Assembly: GCA_964471235.1 (NCBI GenBank)
Contig: CAYYGL010000001.1
Location: 71,315-128,039, forward strand
Direction of reading: 5' to 3'
DNA length: 56,725 nt
Source of the DNA: an uncultured Calditrichaceae bacterium
GTDB lineage: Bacteria > Calditrichota > Calditrichia > RBG-13-44-9 > J075
In this document: positions 1-37,836 of the stretch, in pieces
Layout of the letters: each line of letters starts with the position of its first letter
How positions within the stretch are numbered: position 1 is the first letter of the stretch
The notes under the pieces: model-generated
What the model was told of the DNA's origin: nothing
Database searches by the model: none
What the model saw: the letters and a program-made list of their open reading frames with translations, nothing else
Translations under genes and position numbers: made by a program

Positions 1-2
1 TG

Positions 3-419
3 AACATTGATGAATTCCATGCGGAACTGCTGCCGGAAGACAAGGTGGCGGTGATTAAAGAATTATCAGCCCTATACGGTCCGGTAGCAATGGTGGGCGA
101 CGGCATCAATGATGCGCCGGCGTTAGCGGTTGCGGATATCGGTATCTCCATGGGCGCTTCAGCCACCGATACCGCATTAGAAACGGCTGACATTGCCCTG
201 ATGAACGATGACCTGCGGAAGATTGCTTTTTTAAAGCGATTGAGCCGCAAGACATTGCGCATCATCCGGGAAAACATTTTTATCGCCTTGTTTTTGAAAG
301 GGATTTTTGTGATGTTAGCCATCCCCGGGCTGGCAACCCTGTGGATGGCAGTCTTTGCCGATATGGGCGCCAGTTTGCTGGTGGTGTTTAATGGGTTGCG
401 GGTGCTGCGGAAGGGGTGA
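3..419 (+). CDS. Heavy-metal P1B-type ATPase (CadA/ZntA-like), 3' part only
   Basis: Frame is open from the window edge (..AELLPEDKV), then [20 protein letters not shown] and C-terminal WMAVFADMG typical of Zn/Cd P1B-2 ATPases. Confidence 0.93.
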
Positions 420-543
420 TTTCTAATTTCTTAGGAAGTATTCCAGGGGAATTCTTTTGGGGCAAATTCCAAATCGGGTAAATAAGGTATTGAATCATTT
501 AGTAACGATGAAAAAATAAGTTGTTAAGAATACCTCAATTAGT

Positions 544-698
544 TGTCATTCCGGTTTTTCCCGTTTTTTGGGAAAATACCGCCGCCCACAAAGTGGTCAT
601 TTCGTGAGAAGCGGTTCCGTTGGAAGAATCCCCAGCAGAGATTCCTCCAACGGAGCCACCATGTGGCGGCATTCCGCTCCGCTCCAGCCGGAATGACA
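544..698. repeat. Palindromic intergenic element with TGTCATTCCGG...CCGGAATGACA ends (REP/MITE-like)
   Basis: 11-bp perfect terminal inverted repeats (544-554, 688-698) plus an inner hairpin TCCGTTGGAAGAATC/GATTCCTCCAACGGA. Confidence 0.7.
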
Positions 699-740
699 GC
701 CACATTAAATTTGACAAGTTGTTCTTTACTTTTTACTTAA

Positions 741-1166
741 TTACTGATTTTTAATGTTTTGCTGTTGGATAATATCAAAAAATTCTTTTGGGGAAATGAT
801 TTTAATAGTTCGGAAGGGATTTAGTTCAAGTAAATCTGTATCACTGGAAACTATAAAATCTGCACCTGTACTAACAGCAACTTCAAGAAAAATATTATCT
901 TTGGGATCCCGACAGTCAGTTATTTTTTCATTGGGTACAATAGTTTCCGAATAAAAACTCAGTAAATAGAGAAATTCGCTTATGTCTTCTTGTGAAAAGT
1001 ATTTCCGGAATTTTGGACGTTGCAAAACAAACACCAATTCTTCCAAGGTAGATTCAGAAAATACCAACCGGAATTTCTGTTCCTGTAGAAGTAATATGAA
1101 CTGTCGAAGGGATTTTCCTATTAATGCACTAACCAAAACACTGGTGTCAACCACGACTCGCGGCAA
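741..1166 (-). CDS. PIN-domain (VapC-like) toxin
   Basis: RVVVDTSVLVSAL, CRDPKDNIFLEVA and IVSSDTDLL motifs; probable TTG start at 1166 overlapping the antitoxin end (ORF track extends to 1241). Confidence 0.88.
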   Translation of the reverse strand: MPRVVVDTSVLVSALIGKSLRQFILLLQEQKFRLVFSESTLEELVFVLQRPKFRKYFSQEDISEFLYLLSFYSETIVPNEKITDCRDPKDNIFLEVAVSTGADFIVSSDTDLLELNPFRTIKIISPKEFFDIIQQQNIKNQ

Positions 1167-1377
1167 ATTCTTTTCTGGCACGTTCAACCTCTTTCCGTAT
1201 TTCTTTCTCACTGATTGGATAAGTCGCCAGTTTTTTGTCAATACGGGTCAAAAGCATATTCCATTTTTGGCTGAGGAGTTGGGAACTCAAATAGTCAAAA
1301 AGTTCAATTTTTTTCTGAATGTCTAATTGGTCAACTAACTTATAAATTTCTTTTTCGGATATTTGAAGTGTTGGCAT
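1147..1377 (-). CDS. Putative antitoxin of the PIN toxin
   Basis: 76 aa, overlaps the toxin start, ISEKEIRKEVERAR C-terminus, AGGAG RBS. Confidence 0.75.
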   Translation of the reverse strand: MPTLQISEKEIYKLVDQLDIQKKIELFDYLSSQLLSQKWNMLLTRIDKKLATYPISEKEIRKEVERARKEFAASRG

Positions 1378-1404
1378 TTTTACTCCTAAAAATTTTGTTT
1401 TTAT

Positions 1405-1434
1405 AATATAGAACTAACAGAGACATCAATGCAA
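1405..1434 (-). promoter_or_regulatory. Sigma70-like promoter of the PIN TA cassette
   Basis: Minus strand TTGCAT-N18-TATATT just upstream of the antitoxin RBS. Confidence 0.5.
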
Positions 1435-1887
1435 TTAAAAATTGGCGATACCATAAAACACACACTGTTGCTGTTAATTTTTATTTTCCATCTGTTGCCG
1501 GGACATATCAGTTTGGCGAACCTGGTGCTATGCATTGGCACCGATGGGCATGTCGCTTATGAATCCGCAACGAAACTGGCGACCTGCGCCGAAGCAATTT
1601 CACATCCTTCTCTCCCGGCCGAAACTTCCTTTTCGGCGCTTCACAATGCATTCACTCCAAACCATTGCGGTGAATGTATTGACCTGCCACTCATCATTGA
1701 ATGTAACGAGTATTCCAAAGTTCAATCGCAGCATTCCTCGCTGCGCTCTCTTCAACCGCTCCTCAAAATAAGTCCTGCGGATGATATAACGGCCTTCAAT
1801 GTTCAGCATCGGGTCATCGATATCAACCATTCCGTTTTTCAACATACCTCACTGATTTCTCTTCGTACCACCGTCTTATTGATTTAG
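1429..1887 (+). CDS. Cys/His-rich small protein heading the czc operon (candidate leader ORF, CzcI/DUF2946-like position)
   Basis: N-terminal hydrophobic segment, LVLCIGTDGH, HCGECID, C-terminus LRTTVLLI-stop; lies directly before the TolC gene. Confidence 0.7.
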   Translation: MQLKIGDTIKHTLLLLIFIFHLLPGHISLANLVLCIGTDGHVAYESATKLATCAEAISHPSLPAETSFSALHNAFTPNHCGECIDLPLIIECNEYSKVQSQHSSLRSLQPLLKISPADDITAFNVQHRVIDINHSVFQHTSLISLRTTVLLI

Positions 1888-2045
1888 AATTCCTCACATC
1901 AAAATCTACCAAATTCTTTTCACATTAATAGAAACAGATGAGAAAAGGATACGAAGGTTAAATCGTTAATAAGAACCTCCGTATTCACTCCAACTGTTTC
2001 CCTGAAGAATAAGTCTATTCATGTATACTCAAGCGGAGGATTTAA

Positions 2046-3410
2046 ATGCTCAGGAAATATTTTTATTTACCTGCATTGATTTTACTATTCGGAATTAGTG
2101 GCTGTTCAACTTATCGAACGACAGCGATTTTCCCGGAACCGCGTCCCCTGGCAGAAGAATACCCGGGTTACCGGACTCCGGAAATAATTGAGAAATCCGG
2201 AGAAATTGCGAAATCGACAGTTCCGGTAACGAAGGTACTCACCCTACCAGAGGCGCTATCTTTTGCCTTATTGAATAACCCGGAGCTGGCTGCTTTTTCT
2301 TACGAAATTCGTGCCGCAGAAGCGCGGGCATTACAAGCCAGCCTCTATCCCAACCCGGGGTTGGATATTGAATTGGAAAACTTTGCCGGCAGCGGGGAGG
2401 TGAGTGGTTTCCAGGGAACAGAGTCTACAATTTCCCTGAGCCAGATATTCTTACTGGGAGGGAAACGCAGCAAAGCGGTGCGGGCTGCTGCCCTGGAAGG
2501 GGATCTGGCTGCCTGGAATTATGAAAGCAAACGACTGGATGTGTTTACGGCTGTCAGAACAGCATTCCTTGAAGTGCTGAGTACACAGCAGCGGGTTGCC
2601 CTGAACGAAGAGTTGGTCAACCTGTCAGAACAGCTTGTTAAGACTATATCCGAGAGGATTAAAGCCGGCAAAGTGTCTCCTGCCGAAGGGTCTCGTGCCC
2701 GGGTCATTCTCTCTGCCACAAAGGTAGAGCTGGAGCGCGCCCGGCGTGAATTAGCATCTGCCCGTATCCGCCTGGCAGCGACCTGGGGCAGCACGACACC
2801 CACTTTCGAACGGGTTGCCGGGAGAATGGATACCCTCTTCACCATCCCCAACCTGAACCGGTTGCAGCAAAAGCTTCCTCAAAATCCGGATATTGCTCGA
2901 TTCGCAACAGAGATGGAGCAGCGGCAGGCAGTCATTGCCCTGGAAGACGCCCTTCGGATTCCCGATCCCACGGTTAGTGGCGGATTGCGACGCTTAAACG
3001 AAAGCGATGACAATGCCTTTGTGGTTGGTTTATCCATTCCCCTGCCTTTATCGGATCGCAACCAGGGCGCCAGGCAGGAAGCACGGATTCGCTTTGCGCA
3101 AACCCTGCGGGAGAAGCATGCCATAGAAGTACAACTCAATGCCGCCCTTAGCGAGGCTTACAATAATTTGATTAGCAACTTCAACGAAGCCACAACTCTG
3201 AAAGAACGAATCCTTCCCGAAGCGGAAAATGCTTACCGGGTCATCAAAGAAGGGTACTTACAGGGCAGATTTGATTTCCTGGATGTACTGGATGCCCAGC
3301 GTACCCTGTTTGAAGCCCGCGGGCAATATTTGAGAACGCTAACCGATTTCCACCGGTTTGTCGCAAAAGTTGAGCGTTTGATAGCCATGGAGATTAACGC
3401 TGTTCAGTAG
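2046..3410 (+). CDS. czcC: Outer-membrane efflux protein, TolC/CzcC family
   Basis: Lipoprotein signal ISGC, ALLNNPELAA, YPNP, GRFDFLDVLDAQRTL; GGAGG RBS; operon context. Confidence 0.9.
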   Translation: MLRKYFYLPALILLFGISGCSTYRTTAIFPEPRPLAEEYPGYRTPEIIEKSGEIAKSTVPVTKVLTLPEALSFALLNNPELAAFSYEIRAAEARALQASLYPNPGLDIELENFAGSGEVSGFQGTESTISLSQIFLLGGKRSKAVRAAALEGDLAAWNYESKRLDVFTAVRTAFLEVLSTQQRVALNEELVNLSEQLVKTISERIKAGKVSPAEGSRARVILSATKVELERARRELASARIRLAATWGSTTPTFERVAGRMDTLFTIPNLNRLQQKLPQNPDIARFATEMEQRQAVIALEDALRIPDPTVSGGLRRLNESDDNAFVVGLSIPLPLSDRNQGARQEARIRFAQTLREKHAIEVQLNAALSEAYNNLISNFNEATTLKERILPEAENAYRVIKEGYLQGRFDFLDVLDAQRTLFEARGQYLRTLTDFHRFVAKVERLIAMEINAVQ

Positions 3411-3456
3411 AGTGGGTATTGATAATCCATAAACAAATTTTGAAGGAGATTTTACA

Positions 3457-4467
3457 ATGAGTAACAAACATAAAATAATTCTGGCAATAACACTGTTTGC
3501 CGGAATTATCGTGGGAATGATAATTCATGCGTTGTTTTTTTCTGCCTCCGGTGAACCCCCTGTGGCAAGTGACACCGCTTTTGCGAAAGAGAGCCACAAT
3601 CCGGAAGGGAGCGATGCCGGCGAACATGAAGAGCACGAAAATGCTGTGGTGAAAATCGACGACCGGGAATTGCGGGAATTCGGCATAGAAATCGCAACTG
3701 CCAGTGCGAATACCCTGCAAATTCACACCGATTTAACCGGTGAGATTGTCATCGACCCCGATCGATTGGCGCATATCGTGCCGCGCTTTCCCGGGGTGGT
3801 GAAGGAAGTAAGGAAAAAAATCGGCGACCGGGTGAAAAAAGGGGAGGTGATTGCGGTTATCGAAAGCAACGAAAGCCTGGCGCCTTACGAGGTTCGTTCC
3901 TTGATTGACGGCACGGTGATCGATATGCACATGACCAGAGGTGAGGTAATTGAAGATGCCGAGCACGCCGTGGTGGTCGCAGATTTGAGCTATGTGTGGG
4001 CAAATTTGAGTGTCTATCAAAAAGACCTTCCGCATGTAAAGGTCGGGCAGCCGGTTATTCTCTCTGCCGGTCCGGGAACGAAAGAAGTTAGCGGTACTAT
4101 TTCCTATGTTTCACCGGTGGTAGATGAGGAAACCCGAACGGCAACTGCCCGGGTGGTGTTGCCCAATCCCAACGGCACCTGGAAGCCCGGGTTGTTTGTG
4201 AAAGGGCGAATCATTGTGCAGGAGGTGGAAGCGCCGGTTGTGGTCCCTCGCACGGCAATTGAAATGATAGAAGACCGCCCGGTGGTGTTTGTGAAAACCG
4301 ACGAAGGGTTTAAACCCCAAACCGTGGTGTTGGGGCGGTCAGATGAACGCCGGGTGGAAATCGTGGGAGGACTACACCCCGGTCAACAATACGTGGCGAA
4401 GAACGGATTTACCCTGAAAGCGGAGTTAGGCAAAAGCAGTCTCGGCGAAGGAGGACATGGGCATTGA
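3457..4467 (+). CDS. czcB: RND periplasmic adaptor, CzcB-like
   Basis: N-terminal TM, EHEEHE, lipoyl-like IGDRVKKGEVIA, ISPVVDEETRTATARV, C-terminal GHGH. Confidence 0.9.
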   Translation: MSNKHKIILAITLFAGIIVGMIIHALFFSASGEPPVASDTAFAKESHNPEGSDAGEHEEHENAVVKIDDRELREFGIEIATASANTLQIHTDLTGEIVIDPDRLAHIVPRFPGVVKEVRKKIGDRVKKGEVIAVIESNESLAPYEVRSLIDGTVIDMHMTRGEVIEDAEHAVVVADLSYVWANLSVYQKDLPHVKVGQPVILSAGPGTKEVSGTISYVSPVVDEETRTATARVVLPNPNGTWKPGLFVKGRIIVQEVEAPVVVPRTAIEMIEDRPVVFVKTDEGFKPQTVVLGRSDERRVEIVGGLHPGQQYVAKNGFTLKAELGKSSLGEGGHGH

Positions 4468-4512
4468 TGGGTTCCGAATGGCGAAAGGGATTTGAATTCA
4501 AATAAGAGGGAT

Positions 4513-4878
4513 TCAGGAGATGGGGAGATATAGGATTAAATCCCGGTATTCGAGAGGGTCGGATACTTCCTAAATCAAAAGCAGCTCATCGATTGTTTCT
4601 CCAAGGCTCATCTCGGGGTTTAATTCAAAAATACCAGGAAGATGGTGGTTTTTAGCAAGATGTGTTTTGAGGTGACCTGGCATGGATTTACGATTATTGG
4701 TAACCAGAATGAACGAATTTTTTTCACACCAGAGAAGGATATCAGGGTCCGGAGTTCCCTTTGGGGGTGCTCCGGGGTCACCTATTTTCCAGACAGTCAT
4801 CTCTGGAACCCGTTTAAGCAGTTCGACTCGCAAAACTGGGTTCACGTTTTCATCAAGGAGATACCGGATTTCCATCAC
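4513..4878 (-). pseudogene. DUF5615 PIN-like toxin truncated by an in-frame TAG
   Basis: YLLDENV, TPDPDILLW, LVTNNRKSM; the frame continues past TAG (4570-4572) as EVSDPLEYRDLILYLPIS to TGA at 4513. Confidence 0.75.
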
Positions 4879-5207
4879 TAATGTGAAAGCTCTTTTTCAC
4901 TTTCCTGTTTCAAACGACGCAGCTTTATCACCACCGGAGGCGGATTTTTATCCTGCATACCTCTCATTCGTTTACCAAATGCCAGCCACTCTTTCAAATA
5001 AGATTCGACGGTACTTTTATTGCGCAGATAATAAAGAATGGTGGCATACACTTGTTCAAGCGTCAACGTGGGAAATCGCCTGGCGATCTCTTCCGGTGAT
5101 TGTTCCCGATAAATGTATTCATAAAGGACGGATTCGATGCCGATTCGAGTGCCCTTTATGCGAATATCATCTGAAGCCAGAAAATCGAAATAATCTGCCA
5201 ATTTCAT
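4878..5207 (-). CDS. DUF433 (VapB45-like) antitoxin
   Basis: IRIKGTRIGIE, SPEEIARRFPTLTLEQVYATILYY; coupled to the DUF5615 gene. Confidence 0.88.
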   Translation of the reverse strand: MKLADYFDFLASDDIRIKGTRIGIESVLYEYIYREQSPEEIARRFPTLTLEQVYATILYYLRNKSTVESYLKEWLAFGKRMRGMQDKNPPPVVIKLRRLKQESEKELSH

Positions 5208-5254
5208 ATTTTATCATCTCCTTCACTAAAATTGTCATGACCTTATCTTCTATT

Positions 5255-5283
5255 AATATAACAGGTCGCGCTTAATATTTCAA
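5255..5283 (-). promoter_or_regulatory. Sigma70-like promoter of the DUF433 cassette
   Basis: Minus strand TTGAAA-N17-TATATT. Confidence 0.55.
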
Positions 5284-5378
5284 ATCTCTTTTCCACGAAC
5301 AATTCATGACCATGATAATCAAATAACGAATTAAGGTGATATATGCTTTATCAATAGACCACAAACAGGAGTATCGAT

Positions 5379-8300
5379 ATGAACAAAATCATTCAGTTTG
5401 CCTTACGAAGCCCATTGTTAATGATTGTATTGGGCTTATTGGTGATGGCGGGAGGCTATTACAGCTACCGGCAGTTACCCATAGATGCCTTCCCCGATGT
5501 CTCGCCCAACCTGGTGCAGGTGTTTACCGAAACCGAAGGGCTGGCACCGGAGGAGGTGGAAAAATATGTTACTTATCCGATTGAAGTGGTAATGAACGGA
5601 CTGCCCAATCTGAAATCCATCCGCTCGGTCTCCAACTTCGGATTATCGGTAGTGAACATCTACTTCGAGGATGGCACCGATATTTACTTTGCCCGCCAAT
5701 TGGTCAATGAGCGTCTCCAGGAAGCGCGGGAACAAATTCCGGAGGGATTCGGCGAACCGGCAATGGGACCCATCTCCACTGGTATGGGATTGGTGTTGTT
5801 TTATTACCTGGAAGATGAGGAGGGAAAATATAGTCTGGAAGAACTGCGCACCATCCAGGACTGGCTGATTAAATTTCACCTGCAAACCGTGCCCGGAGTG
5901 ACCGAGGTGCTGGGTATCGGCGGCTGGGAAAGACAATATCATGTAGTGCTCGATCCGTACGCCCTGCTTCGCTACAATGTGACCACCGGTGATATTCTGG
6001 AAACCATTGAGGAGAATAACCTGAACGTGGGCGCCCAGTTTATTGAGAAAAATTCGGAAGAGTTTATCGTGCGCTCCGTGGGTCTGGCATCCACCATTGA
6101 AGACATTGAAAACATTGTGGTAAAAGCGGAAGATGGCACCCCGATATACTTAAAACAATTGGCTGATGTAAAAATCGGTGGCGCCATTCGCCGGGGAATT
6201 CAGACCCGTAATGGAATTGGTGAAGTGGTGGCGGGAATGGTGATCAAACTTTTCGGGAGTAATTCTTCCACGGTTATCGGGGCGGTGGAGGATAAGTTGA
6301 GTGAAATTAACCGCATTCTTCCCCCCGGCATTAAAATTGTACCATACTACGAACAAAAAACCCTGGTGGAAGCCTGTGTAAAAACCGTGACCGATGCCTT
6401 AAAAGAAGGTATCATTCTGGTGGTGATCATTTTGATGCTGTTTCTGGGCGCCATTCGTCCCAGCCTGGTGGTTGCCATCGCCATTCCCTTCTCGGTATTG
6501 TTTGCCATCATTGGAATGCGGTATTTTGGGATTTCCGCAAACCTGATGTCCTTCGGCGGATTGGCAATTGCCATTGGAATGATGGTGGATGGCGCCGTGG
6601 TGATTGTAGAAAATATGGACCGGATGTTGCGGGAGTCCGACCCCGATGAACCGCGAATCCACGTGGTAGCGCGCGCCTGTAAAGAAGTGGTACGACCCAT
6701 CGCCTTTGCCGTGATCATCATCATCATCGTTTTCCTACCCTTGTTTACCCTGCAAGGGGTGGAGGGGAAAACATTCCGCCCCTTAGCTTATACCATTGCC
6801 CTGGCAATGACCGGCTCCCTGGTATTTACCATTCTCCTGGCGCCGGTGCTGTCTTTTCTGCTGATGCGCCGGCCCAGGAAGTCAAAAGAAGCCGGCTCTA
6901 AAGGCGGTGAACACCAAATCTGGATTGTCCGGCTGCTGTTAAAAATCTATGACCCGCTGGTCACTTTTTTCGTGAAAAAGAGAGCTGTTGCAGTAATCCT
7001 GGCGGCAGTGTTAATTCTCATCGGTGCGCTGATTTACCCCCGGTTGGGAACCGAATTTACCCCCACCCTTCAAGAAGGCACCATCGTGCTGCGGCTGACC
7101 ATGGCACCATCCATTGCCCTGGAGGAGAGTAAGCGGATCACATTACTTGTGGAACGCCGGGTGATGAGGATCCCGGAAGTCACCGGGGTGGTCACTCGCA
7201 TTGGGCGCGGCGAAGTGGGAGCACACACCGACCCGGTGAACAGCGCCGAAATGTATGTATTGCTAAAACCCCGTGAGGAATGGCGTAGCGCGCAAACCCA
7301 GGCGGAAATTGAGGAGATTATCCGTAAGGAAGTTGGCAATGTGCCCGGGGTGCTCACCAACCTGACCCAGCCCATCCAGATGACCGTGGATGAACTGTTG
7401 GAAGGGGTGCGGGCGGAATTAGCGATTAAGTTGTTCGGAGATGAGATTGATGTGCTAAAGGAAAAAGCAAATGAGATTGCCGCCGTCATCCAGCGAATTC
7501 CGGGAGCGGCAGACGTGCAGCCGGACCAGATCAGCGGTACGCCGCAGTTGTTGATAAAAATCAACCGTCATGCCATCGCCCGATATGGGATTAACGTATC
7601 CGATGTGCAGCGGGTTATTCGTGCTGCCGTCGGTGGTGAGACGGCAGGTCAGATATTCGAAGGCATTCGCCGTTTTGATATCTATGTGCGTTTTGCCCCG
7701 CAATACCGGGATTCCAAAGAGGCAATTGGCGAGATTCTTATCGAAGCGCCCAACGGTGCTAAGGTTCCTCTGGCACAATTGGCTGCCATCGAGGAGATTG
7801 TCGGTCCCCGGCAAATTACCAGGGAGAATAACCAGCGGTTTATCACCGTGCAATGTAATGTGGTCGGCAGGGACATCGGTTCGTTTGTAGCGGAAGGCCA
7901 GCGGGCGATTGAGGAAAACGTCAATTTGCCGCCCGGTTACCTGGTCACCTGGGGCGGACAATTCCGCTTGCAGCAGGAAGCCAACAAACGGCTTAGCGTG
8001 GTGGTGCCCATTACCCTGTTTATCATCTTCATCTTACTGTTCTCCAGTTTTAACTCGCTGAAGAATTCCTTATTAATCCTGTTAAATATTCCTCTGGCAT
8101 TGGTGGGTGGAGTGGTTGCCCTGTGGATTAGCGGGCAAAACCTTTCCGTTCCCGCCTCAGTAGGATTCATCGCCCTGTTCGGTATTGCCCTGTTAAACGG
8201 AATTGTTCTGGTTACCTATATCAATCAACTCCGAATGGAAGGGCTTCCGGTTGATGAAGCCTCTATCCGGGGCGCCGGTTTAAGGCTGCGCCCGGTGTTA

Positions 8301-8495
8301 ATGACCGCACTGGCGGCGGCCCTGGGGATGATTCCACTGCTCTTTTCCAGCGGCATCGGCAGCGAAGTGCAGCGCCCCCTGGCTACGGTGGTGGTAGGCG
8401 GATTGTTCACCTCTACAGTGTTAACCCTGTTGGTGATTCCGGCATTGTATAAATGGTTTGCCATAGATGTGGACTCGGAAACGGGCGTCAGGTAA
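5379..8495 (+). CDS. czcA: HME-family RND permease, CzcA-like
   Basis: LPIDAFPDV, GMMVDGAVVIVEN, GVEGKTFRPLA, RLRPVLMTA, SEVQRPLATVV; 1038 aa. Confidence 0.93.
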   Translation: MNKIIQFALRSPLLMIVLGLLVMAGGYYSYRQLPIDAFPDVSPNLVQVFTETEGLAPEEVEKYVTYPIEVVMNGLPNLKSIRSVSNFGLSVVNIYFEDGTDIYFARQLVNERLQEAREQIPEGFGEPAMGPISTGMGLVLFYYLEDEEGKYSLEELRTIQDWLIKFHLQTVPGVTEVLGIGGWERQYHVVLDPYALLRYNVTTGDILETIEENNLNVGAQFIEKNSEEFIVRSVGLASTIEDIENIVVKAEDGTPIYLKQLADVKIGGAIRRGIQTRNGIGEVVAGMVIKLFGSNSSTVIGAVEDKLSEINRILPPGIKIVPYYEQKTLVEACVKTVTDALKEGIILVVIILMLFLGAIRPSLVVAIAIPFSVLFAIIGMRYFGISANLMSFGGLAIAIGMMVDGAVVIVENMDRMLRESDPDEPRIHVVARACKEVVRPIAFAVIIIIIVFLPLFTLQGVEGKTFRPLAYTIALAMTGSLVFTILLAPVLSFLLMRRPRKSKEAGSKGGEHQIWIVRLLLKIYDPLVTFFVKKRAVAVILAAVLILIGALIYPRLGTEFTPTLQEGTIVLRLTMAPSIALEESKRITLLVERRVMRIPEVTGVVTRIGRGEVGAHTDPVNSAEMYVLLKPREEWRSAQTQAEIEEIIRKEVGNVPGVLTNLTQPIQMTVDELLEGVRAELAIKLFGDEIDVLKEKANEIAAVIQRIPGAADVQPDQISGTPQLLIKINRHAIARYGINVSDVQRVIRAAVGGETAGQIFEGIRRFDIYVRFAPQYRDSKEAIGEILIEAPNGAKVPLAQLAAIEEIVGPRQITRENNQRFITVQCNVVGRDIGSFVAEGQRAIEENVNLPPGYLVTWGGQFRLQQEANKRLSVVVPITLFIIFILLFSSFNSLKNSLLILLNIPLALVGGVVALWISGQNLSVPASVGFIALFGIALLNGIVLVTYINQLRMEGLPVDEASIRGAGLRLRPVLMTALAAALGMIPLLFSSGIGSEVQRPLATVVVGGLFTSTVLTLLVIPALYKWFAIDVDSETGVR

Positions 8496-8563
8496 TTATC
8501 GAGGGATTCACAATGCTTGCCCCCTGGCGTTCCATCCGGGGAGACAGGAAAGGTAATTAAGTC

Positions 8564-8790
8564 AGCCATGGATTGACGCAGATGAACACAGATACAGCCT
8601 CTACCCCGGTTTACAGGTTGAAAAATTTCCGGTTCCGGGTTAAACGCGTTAGATTGCGATGATGGTGTTGGAGATGCAGTTGCTATAAATGGATTTATGA
8701 CAGGGAGGCTCTACAGCGGGAGTCGCTGAACGCCCCCCACAACCTGAGTCGTTCAAAATAATCCGTGAAATTCAGTGTCAATCCGTGGCT
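8564..8790. repeat. Imperfect inverted-repeat element (AGCCATGGATTGAC...GTCAATCCGTGGCT)
   Basis: About 30-bp imperfect inverted repeats at 8564-8593 and 8761-8790 around about 170 bp without an ORF. Confidence 0.6.
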
Positions 8791-8837
8791 TTAAAATCAT
8801 TCTAAGATAGGACAAATTAGAAAAAAGGAGAAATACC

Positions 8838-9179
8838 ATGAAGCATATTATTGCTTATATCAAACCGCATAAGTTGAGCCAGGTAACCCTGGAATTGCAC
8901 AAGGTGAAAGGGTTAACCGGCATGACCGTGCTGGATGTGCGCGGCTTCGGTCGCACCAAAGCCAAAGACGCGCCGCATCGGATTGTGGAAGATTTGGTTG
9001 ATTATGTTCCCCATGTAAAAATCGAGATTTTCTGCCGGGATGAATTGGTAGAAGAAATCGTTGCCACCATTCAGCGGGAAGCTCACACCGGTTTGCGTGG
9101 CGACGGCAAGATTTATATAACCGGCTGTGAGGACGCTATCCGGATTAGCAGCGGGGAGAGAGGGGAAGTGGCAATCTAA
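8838..9179 (+). CDS. PII-family signalling protein associated with czc
   Basis: IIAYIKPHKL, GMTVLDVRGFG, AHTGLRGDGKIYI, AIRISSGERG; AGGAG RBS. Confidence 0.92.
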   Translation: MKHIIAYIKPHKLSQVTLELHKVKGLTGMTVLDVRGFGRTKAKDAPHRIVEDLVDYVPHVKIEIFCRDELVEEIVATIQREAHTGLRGDGKIYITGCEDAIRISSGERGEVAI

Positions 9180-9238
9180 CATATTCAATGGGAGAAGATT
9201 TTGAGAATCCCAATAATCTGATTATCCTTAATACTCCG

Positions 9239-9510
9239 GGTCATCTATATTTGGATAGCAAACAATAAGTAAAAGCTAAAGTTGTTTTAGGAAATTGATT
9301 GAGGTGAATCCGGAAAACCAGGAAGCATTCGTGAATCTGGGCGCTGCCCTTTGGGGAAAAGGCCGCGTTAACCTTTGGGATAATGAGAGGGTGGCGCAAG
9401 ATTTTCAAAGTTTTTATTACTGGTGCGATAGTGAGATAACTCCCGGGGTGAGACAGGAAATTGAGCGGATTAAAATGGAAATGAAACCCGCAATGCCCGG
9501 AAATCCGTAA
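9239..9510 (+). pseudogene. Degraded TPR-protein fragment
   Basis: GHLYLDSKQ*VKAKVVL, then a frameshift into LIEVNPENQEAFVNLGAAL (TPR-like); no proper start. Confidence 0.45.
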
Positions 9511-9527
9511 AAAAGAAATTAATTGCT

Positions 9528-9821
9528 TCAATCTAATTTTTGAAAGGATTTTCGATAAACATCTTTACGATGAACGATTCTCAGAAGGTATATCGCTTGA
9601 TCATCAAATGTAAAAATGAGTCGATAAACGTGTTTAACTTTCGCCCTCCACACATTCTTATAGCCATGCAATTTCTTGATATCAACGGAAGGATGAAAAA
9701 CGTTTTCGGTAAGGAGCACAGCGATTTCTCAACTTCGCTGTTTGATATCATCTGGCAATTTCTTCAAATCCTTAGCAAAAACCGGGGTTCGATGAATATC
9801 CCGCTTATTCGATGAATTCAT
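9528..9821 (-). pseudogene. RelE/ParE-family toxin with an in-frame TGA
   Basis: ATG at 9821 overlapping the antitoxin: MNSSNKRDIHRTPVFAKDLKKLPDDIKQRS*EIAVLLTENVFHPSVDIKKLHGYKNVWRAKV..YRLIF..IVHRKDVY; TGA at 9729-9731. Confidence 0.8.
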
Positions 9822-10020
9822 CAAAGCTCTGTACTTTTTGTGTTTGGCCGGTTTCTACTTCTTTCAGTGCTTGTTCAAGTTTGCCACGAAAATTCTTTTG
9901 ATAGATTTTTTCCCGGGGAAGAATGGTTTCTAATAATTCACCTAAGAGGTTATAAGCATAAATAATTTCTTTAATTTTATCTTCCGAAAGGGTAATTGTT
10001 ACCTTGGTGCTATTCTCCAT
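9805..10020 (-). CDS. Putative antitoxin of the RelE toxin
   Basis: 71 aa, LEQALKEVETGQT..SFDEF C-terminus, overlaps the toxin start; GGAG RBS. Confidence 0.75.
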   Translation of the reverse strand: MENSTKVTITLSEDKIKEIIYAYNLLGELLETILPREKIYQKNFRGKLEQALKEVETGQTQKVQSFDEFIE

Positions 10021-10166
10021 GTTGCTCTCCTGAACATGTATAAATCCGTTTTTTTTTATTATTCAGAATATAAAACAGTTTCGAGAAAATCAAAATGAAA
10101 AACATTGTTTGAAAAAGTAACTGCACTTATGGCGATGCTCACTGACTGTGTGAAAATTATCAGTCA

Positions 10167-10277
10167 GTTCAAACCAAAGCCCACACCGGTTTACCCGGCG
10201 ACGGCAAAATTTATATAACCGGCTGTGAGGACGCCATCCGGATTAGCAGCGGGGAGCGGGGGGAAGTGGCGGTGTGA
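10167..10277 (+). pseudogene. Remnant 3' copy of the PII-like gene
   Basis: Encodes VQTKAHTGLPGDGKIYITGCEDAIRISSGERGEVAV*; about 100-bp near-identical direct repeat of 9079-9179. Confidence 0.85.
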
Positions 10278-10547
10278 TCCCTTTGCGAAACAATTAGTTT
10301 GATTTGGCAAAAAAATGAACTTATGTTTTTTGAAACGGACGCATGAGCAATTGCAAGTCATTCTCCCCGAAGGGAAAAAATAGGAGAGCCGCGAATATGT
10401 GCCCGGAACACGCACAGCCCTGAAAGAGCAACATCATCCCTTATTATTTCGCTCGTTCAGGGCAACGGATCGTGTATGGTGCAATTTGTCATGGGTCTTT
10501 TGGAACAGTTGATCTCTTTGGAAAAAACATAGATGAAGGAGAATACA

Positions 10548-11648
10548 ATGAAATCAAACACCTTTTTCTTGATATTCGGTTGTCTTATCATCCTGGCTCA
10601 AATAGGACTGGAGGTAAGGGGTGAAAATCCGGCAAAAACCACCGGCAAGCAACTCTTTCTCACCAACTGCGCCGCCTGCCACGGTGCCAATCTGGAAGGG
10701 AATCCTCCCGCTTTCCCATCCCTGAAGAATGTGAAAGAGCGGCTCTCCCGGGAACAAATTCGCACCCAGATAATTAATGGCAAAAACGCCATGCCATCAT
10801 TCAGGCATTTGTCGCCGAAGGAGATTGATGCGATTATTGACTATGTGTTAGGAGAAGCCAATCCCGTCGTAGAGAGCACACCGCTGCCACCGGAGAAGCA
10901 GGGCGAACTTATCTTTAAGGGAACCTGCAACAGTTGTCATCGTGCTACGGTGACCGATCCCCGGCCGGGCGGGTTACCCTTTCGTCATCACATGGAACCG
11001 GCGCCGCTTGCGGGTGCCACCAAACGCTTTAGCCGGGAAGAGTTCAACTGGATTCTGGATATGGGACCGGGATACATGCCCTCGTTTTCCAACCTGGGCG
11101 AAGAAGACCGGGAGGCATTGTGGCGTTATCTCAAAACCCTGGAGGGTAAAGGCGAACCGCGTGGGATAACCATGATGCAGATGCACTGGAGAATGATAGG
11201 ACGGGGCGGCATGATGGGTCGAGGGGGCATGATGGGGATGATGGGGAGAAGGCACCGGGGAATGGGATGGCGAGGACGCTGGCGACAGGAAGGTCGGGTA
11301 AACAAACCGACGAAGGAAATGATTGCCGAAGCCATTCGGGTACATATTCAGCTCGACCAAAAATTAAACAACGGTTTTTATGTGTTGCAAGACCCACAAA
11401 CCGGTAAGACCCTGCGGCTGACATTGAAAAAAATTCACCATGACCGGGTTATTCAAACCATTGACGGTTTTCTGGTGATGGGCGTGGATATGGTTTCAAC
11501 AAGCGGGGAGCGGTATGATGTGGATTTTTTCTTACAACAGCAGGGAGACGAACTACTGGTTTTCCAGGCGATGATTCATAAGGTTAATGCCCAACCCCGC
11601 TACACCTGGAAATTAAAGGATGGGTACTGGGAGCAGGAGGGGAAGTGA
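10548..11648 (+). CDS. Exported di-haem c-type cytochrome with a Met/Gly/Arg-rich linker and an uncharacterised C-terminal domain
   Basis: Signal peptide; CAACH..AMP and CNSCH..YMP haem domains; AAGGAG RBS favours a start at 10548. Confidence 0.85.
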   Translation: MKSNTFFLIFGCLIILAQIGLEVRGENPAKTTGKQLFLTNCAACHGANLEGNPPAFPSLKNVKERLSREQIRTQIINGKNAMPSFRHLSPKEIDAIIDYVLGEANPVVESTPLPPEKQGELIFKGTCNSCHRATVTDPRPGGLPFRHHMEPAPLAGATKRFSREEFNWILDMGPGYMPSFSNLGEEDREALWRYLKTLEGKGEPRGITMMQMHWRMIGRGGMMGRGGMMGMMGRRHRGMGWRGRWRQEGRVNKPTKEMIAEAIRVHIQLDQKLNNGFYVLQDPQTGKTLRLTLKKIHHDRVIQTIDGFLVMGVDMVSTSGERYDVDFFLQQQGDELLVFQAMIHKVNAQPRYTWKLKDGYWEQEGK

Positions 11649-12101
11649 AATAAGCACTTCTAAACAACATGGAAAAAAGGAAAGTCTTCCCACTTCGCCG
11701 TGGACCGATTAGGGATATGATTTTTTCCGGATCGCAACGGAACTTGTAAATCCCGCGGCTTTACATCTCTAACGGGGAGAGAGTTATGAAAATCCTTCAG
11801 AATTGTTTTGAACAGGTCATTCATATACTTTCCTTTTTGTAAAGAAAATATATATCAATATTTTCCTTTTAACAAGGAAACTATTGACAGGGTGTAATAG
11901 GTTGAGGGCATCGTTAACAAAGTTTTATATGACAAAATTAATTCTTATATCTCCCGGTGATTGAATTCGTTATCTTCTGTTACAGATAAAAAGCAGAACG
12001 TTGTAACATAGATTGGGTTATGGAATCCAATATATTTTGGGTGTGAATTGAATTTTGCAAACGGGTGTTAAAAGCTTACCACATAACAGGAGGAGATTCT
12101 C

Positions 12102-12488
12102 ATGAGTTACTATTTTTCCCGTAAATTAAATATGGGCTTTGACGCAGCCATTGATAAAGTGACCGAAGCCTTAAAAGAGGAGGGGTTCGGCATACTGACC
12201 GAAATCGATGTGAAAGAAACGCTGAAGAAGAAGCTGGATGTGGATTTTCAACCGTATCGGATTTTGGGTGCCTGCAACCCGCCTTTTGCGTATCAGGCAT
12301 TACAGGCAGAGGATAAAATCGGCACCATGCTGCCCTGCAATGTGATTGTTCAGCAAACCGGGGAAAACGAAGTGGAAGTGGCTGCGGTAGACCCCATTGC
12401 CTCCATGCAGGCAATTGAAAATCCGAAATTAGGTGAAGTAGCACACCAGGTTCAGGAAAAATTAAAAAAAGTGATTGAGAGTTTGTAG
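12102..12488 (+). CDS. DUF302 domain protein
   Basis: EEGFGILTEIDV, YRILGACNPPFA, IGTMLPCNVIV. Confidence 0.92.
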   Translation: MSYYFSRKLNMGFDAAIDKVTEALKEEGFGILTEIDVKETLKKKLDVDFQPYRILGACNPPFAYQALQAEDKIGTMLPCNVIVQQTGENEVEVAAVDPIASMQAIENPKLGEVAHQVQEKLKKVIESL

Positions 12489-12503
12489 AACCCCGGAGGA
12501 AAG

Positions 12504-12737
12504 ATGATGGGTCATGATATGTGGGGATGGGGATGGATGTGGTTCGGGTGGGTGTTGTGGTTAATTCTTATCGCAGTGATCATTTGGGCGGTCGTGAGGT
12601 TCACCAGCAGCGCTTCCGGACGGTCACATTCTACGCCACCTCAGGAGAGCGCCCTGGACATTCTTAAAAAGCGGTACGCCCGCGGGGAAATTTCCCGGGA
12701 AGAGTTTGAACAGATGAAAAAGGATTTAATGGAGTGA
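12504..12737 (+). CDS. SHOCT-domain small membrane protein
   Basis: Trp/Gly/Met-rich N-terminus, one TM, ESALDILKKRYARGEISREEFEQMK. Confidence 0.9.
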   Translation: MMGHDMWGWGWMWFGWVLWLILIAVIIWAVVRFTSSASGRSHSTPPQESALDILKKRYARGEISREEFEQMKKDLME

Positions 12738-12899
12738 GAAAACGGGAGTCTATTTTTTCTTCACTGTTTAACAGATATGAGGGGATTTTTTCTCGCACCG
12801 TAAGATAGATTATAGCATTTACCGGGAAAAACACCTATATTGCTCCGTATTTGAAATGTACAGAAACCGGCACATGTTTTTAGAAGGCAGCAGTAGCCA

Positions 12900-13289
12900 A
12901 TGACTAAAACTCGTATCCATGACACCTTTTCCCGTCTACTGGTAATACTCATCTTAGCCGCTACATTTCATTTCCAGGCGCCGCTTGCCAACCGGGCAAT
13001 GGATAAGAAATGCTGCGTGAACTCGGAGATGGCATGCTGCAAGGGTGACATACCCGGGAGAACCGTCTGCTGCATCGAACACACTGAACACGATTCGGAG
13101 AATGCCGCCCCGATTCGGGCAATTCCCCATTCAAATCAATCCTTAACAAAACTTCTTGCCGCTGGTCTTAATCTGCCCCCTACACTTTACCAAATTCCGC
13201 AAATTGCACTAAAAACCAATCTTTCAACTGATTTTTTTCTCCACCAGGATAATCATCTCTATTTGCAGAACTCCTCTCTTTTGATTTGA
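12900..13289 (+). CDS. Cys-rich small protein heading the cus operon (candidate leader ORF)
   Basis: Hydrophobic N-terminus, three CC pairs, C-terminus HLYLQNSSLLI-stop; lies directly before the TolC gene. Confidence 0.7.
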   Translation: MTKTRIHDTFSRLLVILILAATFHFQAPLANRAMDKKCCVNSEMACCKGDIPGRTVCCIEHTEHDSENAAPIRAIPHSNQSLTKLLAAGLNLPPTLYQIPQIALKTNLSTDFFLHQDNHLYLQNSSLLI

Positions 13290-13456
13290 TCCTCCTCTCG
13301 CTATACAGGCGTACTATATCCAATCGGCTTCCCCGGGCTTTCTTTTTCCAGGGGAAATAGCCGTCTTGATGGAACTCCTCTGTTTCCTTTACTGGAAATG
13401 CAAAACGGATTTCCCAATCGGTAACCAGTTTAGTTGATTTACCAGAGAGGACTGCT

Positions 13457-14734
13457 ATGCAACGTCTGACCATAATAATATTTTTTTGTCTGGCGTCAAT
13501 GATGCCGACATTCGCCCAATCCGGTTTTCCGAGTCCCGACTCAACAACTCCCGTTCCATTGGAAACATTTATTCGGGAGGCATTGGAGAAGAATCCCATT
13601 ATCCATTCCGCGGAGCAACAGTACAACGCGGTTTTAAGCCGGGTACCGCAGGTTCGTTCGCTGGATGATCCCATACTCAGCTACACCCATTGGTTTTCCA
13701 GTGTGGAAACCCGGGTGGGTCCCATGCAGAACTCGCTACGTCTCTCGCAGCGTTTCCCCTTTTTCGGCAAACTGCGGCTCAGGGGAAAAATGGCGGAGCA
13801 AGATGGGGAGGTTGCCGGGCAACACCACCATGCCATCCGCCGTGATGTAATTTTCCGGGTAAAAATTACTTATTTCGATCTCTATCGCATCGACCGATCC
13901 ATCGCCATCCTCAGGGAATACCGGGAATTGTTGAAACGCTTTCAGAAAGTTGCCGCCCGTAAATACGCCACCGGCATCGGCACCCGGGTGAATGTGCTGA
14001 AAGCGCAGGTGGAAATTGCCGCACTTCAAGAACAGATAATAAACTTTACGCAAATTCGTGAAGGAGCAGTAGCACGGCTGAATGCCCTCCTCGGGCGGGA
14101 TGAAACACACTCCATTGCCCAGATTACTGAAATTGATACATCCCTGTTAGCCTTGACCGAGGCGGAAATACTGGAAGCCGCTTTTGCCGCTCGGGAGGAA
14201 TTACAGTCAGCGGAAGCGCAGATCCGCAAGGCTCAATTTGCCATTCGCCTGGCAAAACGGAATTTTTTTCCGGATGTTACCCTGGCGCTATCCTACACCA
14301 CCATCCCCTCCGGAAGAACCCCGGCAATAGACCGGGGAAAAGACCCCTGGGCGCTGCAAGTGGGTATAAATCTGCCTATCTACCTGGGAAAACGAAAGGC
14401 TGCGGTGGAGGAAGCCCGAGCCCTGCGGAATTCGCAGCAACTCTATTACCGGAATCTCAGAAACGAGGTGGTGGCGGAAATCCGGGAACTCCATGCCCGA
14501 TTAAAGGCATCGGAACAGACGATGGTTCTGTACCAGCGGCAGTTGCTTCCGGACGCCCGGCAAACTCTCCAATCGGCACTGTCTGCATATCAAACCGGCA
14601 GCCTGGATTTTCTTTCCCTGTTAGACAGTGAGCGGATGCTGCTTCAATTTCGCCTGGCGTATGTGGAGGAACTATCGGATTACCGTCAGATAGCCGCTGC
14701 TCTGCAAAGAGCCATGGGCAGGGACTTACCCTGA
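13457..14734 (+). CDS. TolC-family outer-membrane protein of the Cus-like system
   Basis: Signal peptide, ALEKNP, LDDP, SQRFPFFGKL, YQTGSLDFLSLLDS. Confidence 0.9.
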   Translation: MQRLTIIIFFCLASMMPTFAQSGFPSPDSTTPVPLETFIREALEKNPIIHSAEQQYNAVLSRVPQVRSLDDPILSYTHWFSSVETRVGPMQNSLRLSQRFPFFGKLRLRGKMAEQDGEVAGQHHHAIRRDVIFRVKITYFDLYRIDRSIAILREYRELLKRFQKVAARKYATGIGTRVNVLKAQVEIAALQEQIINFTQIREGAVARLNALLGRDETHSIAQITEIDTSLLALTEAEILEAAFAAREELQSAEAQIRKAQFAIRLAKRNFFPDVTLALSYTTIPSGRTPAIDRGKDPWALQVGINLPIYLGKRKAAVEEARALRNSQQLYYRNLRNEVVAEIRELHARLKASEQTMVLYQRQLLPDARQTLQSALSAYQTGSLDFLSLLDSERMLLQFRLAYVEELSDYRQIAAALQRAMGRDLP

Positions 14735-14769
14735 AACAGTTTCAGTAAACAAAACGACGGAGGTTTACG

Positions 14770-16401: not shown

Positions 16402-16425
16402 AGGGAGAAATAAGTTGAGAAAAGA

Positions 16426-17034
16426 TTATGGAAAGAATACCAATTTGATGAGCATGGCTAACATAGCTAACAGGAGGCCAAATACCAATTTTTGGCCGGT
16501 TTCTAATTTTGCAATCCGTTCACTCAGCGATGCCGCAACATTTCCGACGTACTCAATAAGTTCCACACGCAAATTCGCCAGGTCAGCTTTGGTAGCCATA
16601 TTTTCTTTAATATCATCGATTTCTACCTGTATTTTTCCAAGGTCGGCTTTGGTAGCCATATTCTCTTTAATGTCATCAATTTCCACCTGTATTTTTCCAA
16701 GGTCACCCTTGGTAGCCATATTCTCTTTAAGATTATCATTTTCTACCTGCAGTCTTCCAAGGTCACCCTTGGTAGCCATATTTTCTTCGATATTTTCCAC
16801 CCGGCTGCGCAAATCGGTTATATCGCCCCGTAACATAGCCACTTCCTCACGGGTAGCCATGTTTTTTTCGATATACCTTTCAAGCCCTTCTAAACGGGTT
16901 TCTAATCTGACAATGGCGGCAGCCGGCGAACGGCGCACCTCTTCCATATCTTCTAACGTTAATTTGAGATGCTCCTCTACCGCCTTTTTGACAAGCTCTT
17001 TCAGACGTTTTTCATCAACGTTCATGGTAGCCAT
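16426..17034 (-). CDS. Coiled-coil protein with MATKxDL repeats and a C-terminal TM anchor (CCDC90/DUF1640-like)
   Basis: Repeats ENMATK(G/A)DL, hydrophobic tail; own promoter TTGAAA-N17-TATATT at 17060-17088. Confidence 0.75.
   Translation of the reverse strand: MATMNVDEKRLKELVKKAVEEHLKLTLEDMEEVRRSPAAAIVRLETRLEGLERYIEKNMATREEVAMLRGDITDLRSRVENIEENMATKGDLGRLQVENDNLKENMATKGDLGKIQVEIDDIKENMATKADLGKIQVEIDDIKENMATKADLANLRVELIEYVGNVAASLSERIAKLETGQKLVFGLLLAMLAMLIKLVFFP
16573..16800. repeat. 60-bp coding tandem repeat (about 4 units)
   Basis: GGTAGCCATA recurs at 16591, 16651, 16711 and 16771 (degenerate copy at 16852). Confidence 0.9.
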
Positions 17035-17107
17035 GTTCGTCCCTGCATCTTTTAAATTAAATATAACGGTTCGCTAATTTTATTTCAACCGAATTTCGAG
17101 GATTGGT

Positions 17108-37712: not shown

Positions 37713-37836
37713 TGAAGCGAAACCGGGAGAACACCCGGGAACCACCAACAATGATTCAAAGTTCATTGTTCATTAAAAAACTTGCATTTCCTCTATGCTT
37801 GTGTATATTTGCATAGGAATTGCACAGGTGGAAAAA

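Follow-up and report, generated by a model that had tools for sequence, protein, structure and literature searches.

What does a small unannotated gene at the head of a heavy-metal efflux operon contribute to the pump genes that follow it? This question is raised by 56,725 nucleotides (nt) of DNA from an uncultured Calditrichaceae bacterium (GenBank assembly GCA_964471235.1, contig CAYYGL010000001.1, positions 71,315 to 128,039 of the forward strand; hereafter the window, meaning this whole stretch), in which an open reading frame (ORF) of 152 amino acids (aa) at 1429-1887 lies 158 nt upstream of a czcC-type gene on the same strand. We refer to it as the leader ORF. The original prediction had placed it, together with a second ORF at 12900-13289, in one modular family of metal-responsive leaders, with sequence around the stop codon pairing to the Shine-Dalgarno (SD) sequence of the next gene. 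Our analysis indicates that the observation was largely right and that the interpretation was right in kind but over-specific on one helix and on the idea of one family. Judged by its sequence relatives, the leader ORF is the gene for a conserved protein of a real, widespread and unnamed family, not a short leader peptide, and the sole conserved position of this family is that of first gene in czcCBA-type efflux operons.

A conserved protein family at the head of czcCBA-type operons

An exhaustive HMMER search with ORF 1429-1887 against 1.84 billion cluster representatives recovered 170 related representatives at E<=1e-3, 12 of them at E<=1e-10. Almost all of these relatives are 135-160 aa long (family median 149 aa), the leader ORF aligns with them end to end as a full-length member, and most of the listed matches that reach the C-terminus of the query also stop at the last residue of the subject. 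The leader ORF has no match in Pfam (E<=0.1), in NCBIfam or among PDB sequences, and none of 80 family members matches Pfam at E<=0.01; a feature match in the ESM Atlas to Pfam DUF8199 (PF26622; rank 12, score 0.95, 157 shared features) is an unconfirmed lead. One relative, P0002, is 56% identical and available as protein only, and the nearest relative with DNA is about 35-40% identical. A single-protein query with P0117 against genome contigs returned no relatives. We found no published description of the family, although single members may sit in the supplementary lists of the CutF and CruR papers discussed below.

We scored motif conservation in an alignment of 80 family members (A1), which contains three conserved blocks, VLCxGxDGHVAxE, HCGxCxD and a tail of consensus LxSLRTxVLLI. 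They are distributed along the leader ORF as follows:

1429..1887, + strand: leader-protein gene, 152 aa; unannotated family with Cys/His/Asp/Glu motifs and a tail ending LLI-stop
1444..1512, + strand: hydrophobic N-terminal helix, residues 6-28, in the AlphaFold2 model (predicted local distance difference test score, pLDDT, 94 for residues 11-20), preceded by K4 and K10; putative export signal or signal anchor
1522..1566, + strand: motif 1, residues 32-46, LVLCIGTDGHVAYES; family form VLCxGxDGHVAxE; predicted beta-hairpin; pairwise identity 0.58
1663..1689, + strand: motif 2, residues 79-87, HCGECIDLP; family form HCGxCxD; predicted third strand of a small sheet; pairwise identity 0.64
1690..1851, + strand: protein spacer, residues 88-141; sequence unconserved, structure of low confidence, length fixed
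1852..1887, + strand: tail, residues 142-152, TSLISLRTTVLLI, plus TAG stop; consensus LxSLRTxVLLI, ending exactly at the stop codon

In motif 1, C35 and G40 are invariant and V33, D39, H41 and E45 are at least 90% conserved, as is C53 (1585-1587) beyond it; the invariant residues of motif 2 are C83 and D85, with C80 and G81 conserved to at least 90%. The features by which this ORF had been singled out, namely a hydrophobic N-terminus, CIGTDGH, HCGEC and the end TTVLLI-TAG, are thus all present, and the motifs and the LLI end extend across the family. Between the second motif and the tail the sequence is free to vary (pairwise identity 0.11) and the distance is not: 60 residues separate D85 from R146 with a standard deviation of 1.6, 93 of 103 sequences fall within 2 residues of this value, and D85 is a median of 67 residues from the C-terminus (interquartile range 66-68). 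The length of the N-terminal part, by contrast, varies with a standard deviation of 13.3. The extreme C-terminus, reported as the most conserved block, has an identity of 0.61; 92 of 151 sequences end in LLI, with L at -3 in 138, L at -2 in 124 and I at -1 in 104. Over 40 loci, the codons of this tail draw on all six leucine codons and all three stop codons, so that selection is on the peptide rather than on the RNA or on a single release factor.

To place these residues in a structural context, we examined an AlphaFold2 model of the leader built with an 80-row alignment. In addition to the N-terminal helix, it contains a small three-stranded sheet (residues 32-37, 42-46 and 83-87) that joins the two motifs. 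The model as a whole is weak (mean pLDDT 64.3, predicted template modelling score 0.36), with low confidence and mostly predicted disorder outside helix and sheet, and a complex prediction for leader residues 29-152 with CzcC was uninformative (score 0.00). The conserved ligand-type residues number eight (C35, D39, H41, E45, C53, C80, C83 and D85), and the leader is most likely a small exported or membrane-anchored metal-binding protein.

The genomic position of the family is equally constrained. It is present in 39 of 86 genomes of the window's phylum, and in all 29 loci of the main search other than our own the next gene on the same strand is a czcC homologue. Ten further loci gave the same picture, with czcC and czcB following in nine and the tenth ending at a contig edge, so that czcC lies directly downstream in 38 of 38 evaluable non-own loci of this phylum. 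Outside it, a gammaproteobacterial (Methylomonas) plasmid carries a copy annotated "hypothetical protein", followed by TolC-family, adaptor and CzcA genes. The leader-czcC intergenic region measures at least 67, at median 127 and at most 379 nt (n=39, own locus included). Within the genome of the window, a Cys-rich ORF ending in LLI stands upstream of both metal-type outer membrane efflux protein (OEP) genes and of none of three other OEP-like genes. Two loci have peculiarities of their own: genome G062 carries two leader copies (L004 and L038), each before its own czcC-czcB pair, and at L017 (G045:C7) the gene that follows the leader, a czcC homologue, is broken into four frames, from either a frameshifted gene or an assembly error.

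In the window, an OEP gene, an adaptor gene and a CzcA/CusA-family pump gene follow the leader in series, which identifies the operon as one for heavy-metal efflux of the resistance-nodulation-division (RND) type:

1379..1407, + strand: promoter-like site, TTTACT, 17 nt, TATAAT; 10 of 12 consensus positions matched; about 20 nt 5' of the ORF start
2046..3410, + strand: czcC-type outer membrane factor (lipoprotein); Pfam OEP (PF02321) 7.3e-47; IhpA-like 3.1e-72, under the curated cut-off
3457..4467, + strand: czcB-type periplasmic adaptor; HlyD_D23 (PF16576); IhpB-like 2.2e-91, under the curated cut-off
5379..8495, + strand: CzcA/CusA-family heavy-metal RND pump; ACR_tran (PF00873); TIGR00914 1143.8 bits against a cut-off of 701

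The promoter-like site would make the leader ORF the first gene of this operon; by consensus match only, four such sites were found where shuffled sequence leads one to expect 2.5. No gene for a two-component system or metal regulator was seen among the ORFs of 1-21 kb scanned against Pfam.

A second LLI leader and the RNA ahead of the pump genes

The window holds another Cys-rich ORF that ends in LLI, 11 kb further along:

12900..13289, + strand: second leader-type ORF, 129 aa; motifs CCxxxxMxCC and CC; ends NSSLLI-TGA; unrelated family
13444..13459, + strand: SD region of a cusC-type gene, AGAGAGGA at 13444-13451 and ATG at 13457; predicted paired with the stop-proximal CUCCUCUC

We considered and rejected the idea that the two ORFs belong to one family: BLASTP between them gives an E-value of 1.7, the family hidden Markov model misses ORF 12900-13289 even at E<=10, and hhalign assigns a probability of 0.2%. 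The two leaders share their architecture and a terminal (L/F/Y)LI without detectable homology, and at the DNA level both do end, as had been remarked, in TTGATTT(AG/GA) followed by TCCTC. Relatives of the second ORF are few (one by word search; two genomes of 86). CC..M.CC..CC and a terminal S-x-(L/F/Y)-L-I are common to all four sequences, and the three loci that can be placed, those of ORF 12900-13289 and of two located relatives, all have the leader at the head of a cusC-type OEP gene. What survives of the proposed modular family is therefore that both leaders are conserved and always precede genes for metal-type outer membrane factors; the single family gives way to two unrelated ones (129-152 aa). 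Of the 10,028 frames in this genome that reach 100 aa or more, only 9 have LLI at their end. Since ORF 1429-1887 and ORF 12900-13289 are two of these 9, the end that they have in common is not a matter of chance. Its occurrence in two unrelated families suggests a function tied to the end of translation and not to one partner protein.

We next consider the RNA between leader and pump genes. At the czcC locus it has three features:

1888..1930, + strand: G-free tract of 43 nt with 11 C, directly past the stop codon; contains the anti-SD sequence CCTC at 1892-1895
1931..2000, + strand: spacer hairpin; GAAACAG/CTGTTTC at its base, GGATACGAAGGTT/AACCTCCGTATTC in the upper stem; encloses CCTCCG at 1976-1981
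2033..2048, + strand: czcC ribosome-binding region; SD GGAGGA 2035-2040, ATG 2046-2048

The hairpin at 1931-2000, including its CCTCCG, had been predicted and holds up well: it folds with -21.9 kcal/mol (z score -4.18), and none of 200 shuffled sequences is equally stable. As candidates for other roles, a genomic repeat was rejected because the sequence is unique in the genome, and an intrinsic terminator because no terminator-like site lies on the + strand; a scan of positions 1-20000 with Rfam gave no credible family. Its sequence has no counterpart in relatives, the spacers of which fold differently, and a metagenome contig search with the leader ORF returned only a single contig, of identical DNA. 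We note separately that the hairpins of the window and of loci L011, L013 and L015, from two taxonomic families, have a common stem base, GAAA(A)CAG ... CTGTTT(T)C, with the remaining spacer unalignable.

The helix proposed between the stop codon and the czcC SD consists of 1882-1888 paired with 2041-2047 (7 base pairs, one of them G-U), a 2-nt bulge at 1889-1890, and TCCTC 1891-1895 paired with GAGGA 2036-2040. Its 12 base pairs take in the SD (2035-2040) and the start codon (ATG at 2046). The minimum free energy (MFE) structure of 1861-2075 (-39.1 kcal/mol) contains this helix and that of 1860-2070 (z score -1.12) lacks it. The ensemble assigns it a probability of about 0.2-0.24, and one of about 0.5 to a rival SD partner at 1868-1875, the CCACC of which (1868-1872) lies within the TTV codons of the tail. 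The czcC SD is paired with a probability of 0.90, and the share of this pairing that falls to the zone around the stop codon is 0.26 in one fold window, or about 0.6 when per-base probabilities are summed. At the second leader, two copies of CUCCUCUC flank the stop codon (13271-13278 and 13292-13299), both the paired probability of the cusC-type SD and the stop-zone share are 1.00, and the pairing appears in the MFE and centroid structures alike; an equivalent stop/SD helix, CCACGCC/GGCGUGG, is found at L035.

To assess whether SD occlusion is a property of the family, we compared its loci with control gene pairs. All controls were drawn from the single genome of the window, and the family loci are relatives of one another, limits that count against the reading we weigh below. 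In a partition-function comparison from which two loci without an SD motif were excluded, the probability that the SD is paired was 0.885 in 28 family loci and 0.568 in 200 control gene pairs (p 1.5e-9), and the share paired to the stop-codon zone was 0.41 and 0.13, respectively (p 2.7e-6). Restricting the comparison to GGAG-only SDs gave 0.884 (n=23) versus 0.651 (n=200), with an anti-SD 4-mer within 25 nt of the stop codon in 8 of the 23 loci and 17 of the 200 controls. The stop-proximal window ranks among the best 5% of SD partners in 9 of 30 loci as opposed to 14 of 150 control gene pairs, and in 9 of 30 loci no more than 3 of 29 foreign SDs equal or beat the pairing with the locus's own SD. 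The spacers of several relatives fold into a domain closed by a helix between bases just past the stop codon and the czcC SD, in sequences that are specific to each locus (ACCCTCTGCA/TGCAGAGGT in L002; ACCTCACC/GGTGAGGT in L010). The RNA logic of the original prediction is supported as family-wide predicted SD occlusion, often by sequence at the stop codon; the helix at the locus for which it was drawn up is no better than chance.

Base composition past the stop codon is also distinctive. The first 40 nt contain on average 4.6 G in the family and 9.6 G in 623 controls (p 5e-15), and 10.4 as against 7.8 C (p 1.8e-5); the G-free run that begins there has a median length of 12 in the family and 2 in controls (p 6.5e-15). 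A run as long as the 43 nt of our locus occurs in 1 of 623 controls. The tract 1888-1930 is accordingly a candidate anti-SD reservoir, a candidate Rho-loading (rut-like) site, or both; Rho is encoded in the genome.

Proposed sensing through a nascent chain and its alternatives

CutF and CruR are precedents for exported leader proteins with Cys motifs that can sense metal as nascent chains (PMC9973294 and PMC9426467). As described in the former, CutF is an exported CxxxC protein that, when copper-bound, stalls the ribosome through its proline-rich tail and thereby melts a stem-loop over the cutO SD. The mechanism is demonstrated for CutF there and in a preprint (10.1101/2025.02.05.636593), and for CruR in PMC9426467. 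The reading of ORF 1429-1887 that we favour, and to which we give an even chance of being correct, is that it encodes an exported leader that senses metal and acts in cis, in the manner of CutF and CruR but with a proline-free tail, its read-out being unmasking of the SD, masking of Rho, or both. This reading starts from a protein family with conserved motifs, a ruler-like spacer, strict gene order, a long, structured and G-poor intergenic region and family-wide predicted SD occlusion; what we infer is export, the binding of a metal and its identity, a pause of the ribosome at LLI-stop, and regulation in cis together with its direction. The anatomy of the leader matches the hallmarks listed for DUF2946/CruR in PMC9426467, which are a helix, CxxC, fixed spacing, a conserved C-terminus and disorder.

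In the sequence of events that we envisage, the N-terminal helix would send the nascent chain through the Sec translocon, and the spacer of set length, which puts D85 67 residues ahead of the C-terminus, would place the Cys/His/Asp/Glu mini-domain in the periplasm at the time the ribosome reaches SLRTxVLLI and the stop codon. A geometric argument of this type has been made for CutF, with about 30 residues in the ribosomal tunnel and about 17 across the membrane (PMC9973294). Occupancy of the mini-domain by metal would alter the dwell time of the ribosome at the tail and stop codon, where it would cover CCACC/CCTC and the adjoining G-free, C-rich tract. With this tract covered, the czcC SD would be freed, Rho loading would be blocked, or both, and czcCBA would be switched on.

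How closely this corresponds to characterized systems can be judged feature by feature. CutF, from the cutFOG operon of Rhodobacter capsulatus and DUF2946-like, is likewise the small first gene of a metal-detoxification operon. Its protein begins with an export signal and keeps a constant spacing between a Cys motif for metal and a conserved motif at the C-terminus, and intergenic RNA shields the next SD. Our family differs from it in lacking a DUF2946 match and a proline-rich tail, in having an additional CxGxDGHxxxE motif, in its spacer of 60-67 residues rather than the 45 of CruR and CutF, and in its longer intergenic region (median 127 nt), which often forms a long-range stop-to-SD helix where CutF has a local stem-loop. 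By the rules for a CutF-like class as given in PMC9973294, which required PP in the last 15 residues and found OEP genes of RND pumps to be the commonest downstream neighbours, the leader ORF falls outside: it has 152 aa and no PP, and czcC follows 158 nt downstream on the same strand. As PP occurs within the last 15 residues in only 9 of 151 family sequences, the published filter would have dropped the family. CruR (Bp2923 of Bordetella pertussis, DUF2946/PF11162) shares with our leader a CxxC motif, an export-type N-terminus, the first position in an operon and a long intergenic region, given as 162 nt where PMC9973294 cites it; it controls Rho-dependent termination (PMC9426467), for which the G-poor, C-rich tract past the stop codons of our family would be fitting. 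In CruR, RAPP stands three residues from the C-terminus, and the operons that it heads serve copper uptake (TonB receptor) and are shut down by copper, whereas our family ends in LLI-stop and heads efflux operons. Of the DUF2946-type traits, a modelled N-terminal helix, CxxC (C80-G-E-C83) and fixed spacing from motif to tail are present in the leader, and a C-terminal RAPP or proline-rich arrest motif is not, its tail reading SLRTTVLLI; PF11162 matches neither the ORF, on direct comparison or in a scan of the genome, nor any of the 80 family members.

CzcI of Cupriavidus metallidurans pMOL30 resembles the leader in its position before czcC, small size, N-terminal signal, CGxC and lack of a proline tail (PMC9973294). 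It differs in being 115 aa long, in ending ...QWQRLA and in its weak DUF2946 score (E 0.026), where our family has none. A test of homology by hhalign gave a probability of only 2% (E 0.023), over 29 columns around CGxC. Finally, in leaders with arrest peptides such as SecM, MifM, VemP and TnaC, as summarized in PMC9973294, the conserved C-terminus of an exported nascent chain governs an SD-hiding RNA (SecM type) or a Rho site at the stop codon (TnaC type). What these systems sense is tryptophan or the state of the secretion machinery, and ribosome arrest has been proven for them, whereas arrest in our family is proposed and its tail is different.

Several observations weigh against nascent-chain sensing by the leader. 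Its tail has no proline and matches none of the arrest motifs tested, and a non-polar C-terminus could also be a recognition tag for a protease or a PDZ domain. An SD partner at -13 to +11 of the stop codon was found in only 16 of 36 evaluated loci, a set that includes nine additional loci, and our own is not one of the 16. Family-wide, the probability of SD pairing is still 0.81 after spacer shuffling, compared with 0.885 before, which indicates that occlusion rests on composition more than on a defined helix, and at our own locus 14 of 25 shuffled spacers pair the SD to the same degree. The stop::SD helix of the original prediction, accurate as to its complementarity and its coverage of the czcC SD and start, depends on the fold window and is no better than chance at this locus: its duplex of -8.5 kcal/mol (z score -0.55) is equalled in 43 of 200 shuffles and, among 29 foreign stop regions, by 17, and 40.7% of 442 other 30-nt windows in gene and spacer match or exceed its pairing with the SD. 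That this helix is not significant also speaks for a rival reading, raised already with the original prediction, in which the ORF encodes a stable, trans-acting accessory of the pump. As an inner-membrane-anchored or periplasmic metal-binding chaperone, gatekeeper or regulator, as suggested for CzcI, the protein would have a tail that serves as a protein-protein, PDZ or tail-specific-protease motif, and SD occlusion would be ordinary translational coupling; its 152 aa and its eight conserved ligand-type residues in a small predicted sheet would be in keeping with a stable metal-binding protein of the periplasm, its co-occurrence with czcCBA is strict, and stop-proximal SD pairing is also seen in 10 of 150 control gene pairs and so is not specific to leaders. 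We regard this explanation as a serious rival, if less likely than the favoured reading, given that the gene is always first and is separated by at least 67 nt of G-poor RNA from czcC while only 46 nt lie between czcC and czcB, that the spacer keeps its length without conserving its sequence, that the model is mostly disordered, and that the same terminal LLI recurs in an unrelated family before cusC-type pumps.

Whether a pausing ribosome would act through the SD or through Rho is a question within the favoured reading. Rho-dependent attenuation of the CruR/TnaC type, in which a ribosome lingering at the stop codon masks the Rho-loading site, is a variant of its output step that takes up somewhat less than half of the weight we give to that reading, is not to be added to it, and is on its own rather improbable. 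The 43-nt G-free run with its 11 C, the depletion of G and enrichment of C in the first 40 nt across the family, the long intergenic regions and the presence of Rho in the genome all fit, and CruR works in this manner with an intergenic region of 162 nt (PMC9426467; PMC9973294). On the other side, the tract has little length for a rut site, a stable hairpin comes after it, and the same composition also accounts for SD pairing. Regulation by RNA alone, with the hairpin 1931-2000 as an attenuator, thermometer or processing site and the ORF irrelevant, has in its favour the significant stability of that hairpin and, as we count it, the absence of Rfam matches; together with the possibility that the RNA features are chance, it strikes us as very improbable, because the ORF is conserved as a protein over 170 clusters, the hairpin sequence lacks a counterpart in relatives and the + strand has no terminator-like site.

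The two LLI leaders also invite a more speculative extension of the cis-acting reading, which we think doubtful. (S/T)x(V/I)LLI-stop may be a proline-free, termination-stage pausing module that has been joined to at least two unrelated periplasmic metal-sensing heads, CxGxDGH/HCGxCxD (czc-type) and CC...CC...CC (cus-type); the 60-residue ruler would set the sensor at the translocon exit with the ribosome on the stop codon, and a long-range helix or a Rho site, beginning inside the ribosome footprint of the stop codon, would serve as read-out. If the analogy with CutF and CruR holds, nascent-chain metal sensing would extend past the proline-tailed DUF2946 proteins of Proteobacteria and Bacteroidota to a sequence-unrelated family of at least 170 clusters, ranging over the window's phylum, a gammaproteobacterial plasmid and, by Atlas look-alikes, Planctomycetota, all of it invisible to the published search rules. 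The LLI tail common to two unrelated leaders and the 60-residue spacer would then be testable handles on proline-free signalling from the periplasm to the peptidyl-transferase centre, and would bear on how a ribosome at a stop codon controls a start site more than 100 nt away. In practice, a "hypothetical protein" that recurs at the head of heavy-metal efflux operons would gain a name and a hypothesis for its role.

Neighbouring genes in the window

The window begins with the 3' end of a P-type ATPase-like gene, followed by a PIN-type toxin pair on the opposite strand. This pair (741-1377, - strand) comprises a PIN-domain protein (741-1241) and an overlapping 76-aa ORF (1147-1377), is probably of VapBC type, and lies directly 5' of the promoter-like site of the leader. 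A further two-gene module on the - strand, at 4570-5207 within the 911-nt gap between czcB and czcA, encodes a DUF433 protein (4878-5207) and a 102-aa partner (4570-4878). It resembles a toxin-antitoxin module inserted into the pump operon; on the Methylomonas plasmid czcA directly follows czcB.

About 340 nt past czcA, a P-II family gene with a weak DUF3240 match (8838-9179; E 0.025) recalls the small P-II-like genes that occur in some metal-efflux operons. Between the two pump operons, 10533-11648 encodes a di-haem cytochrome c with a Met/Gly/Arg-rich repeat (…GRGGMMGRGGMMGMMGRRHRGMG…), the Met-rich part of which may bind copper. A 252-aa ORF at 16319-17077, without a Pfam or NCBIfam match, separates the cusA-like gene from the cusB-like adaptor gene, with the end of which it overlaps, and an AbiEi/AbiEii type IV toxin-antitoxin pair occupies 37795-39371.

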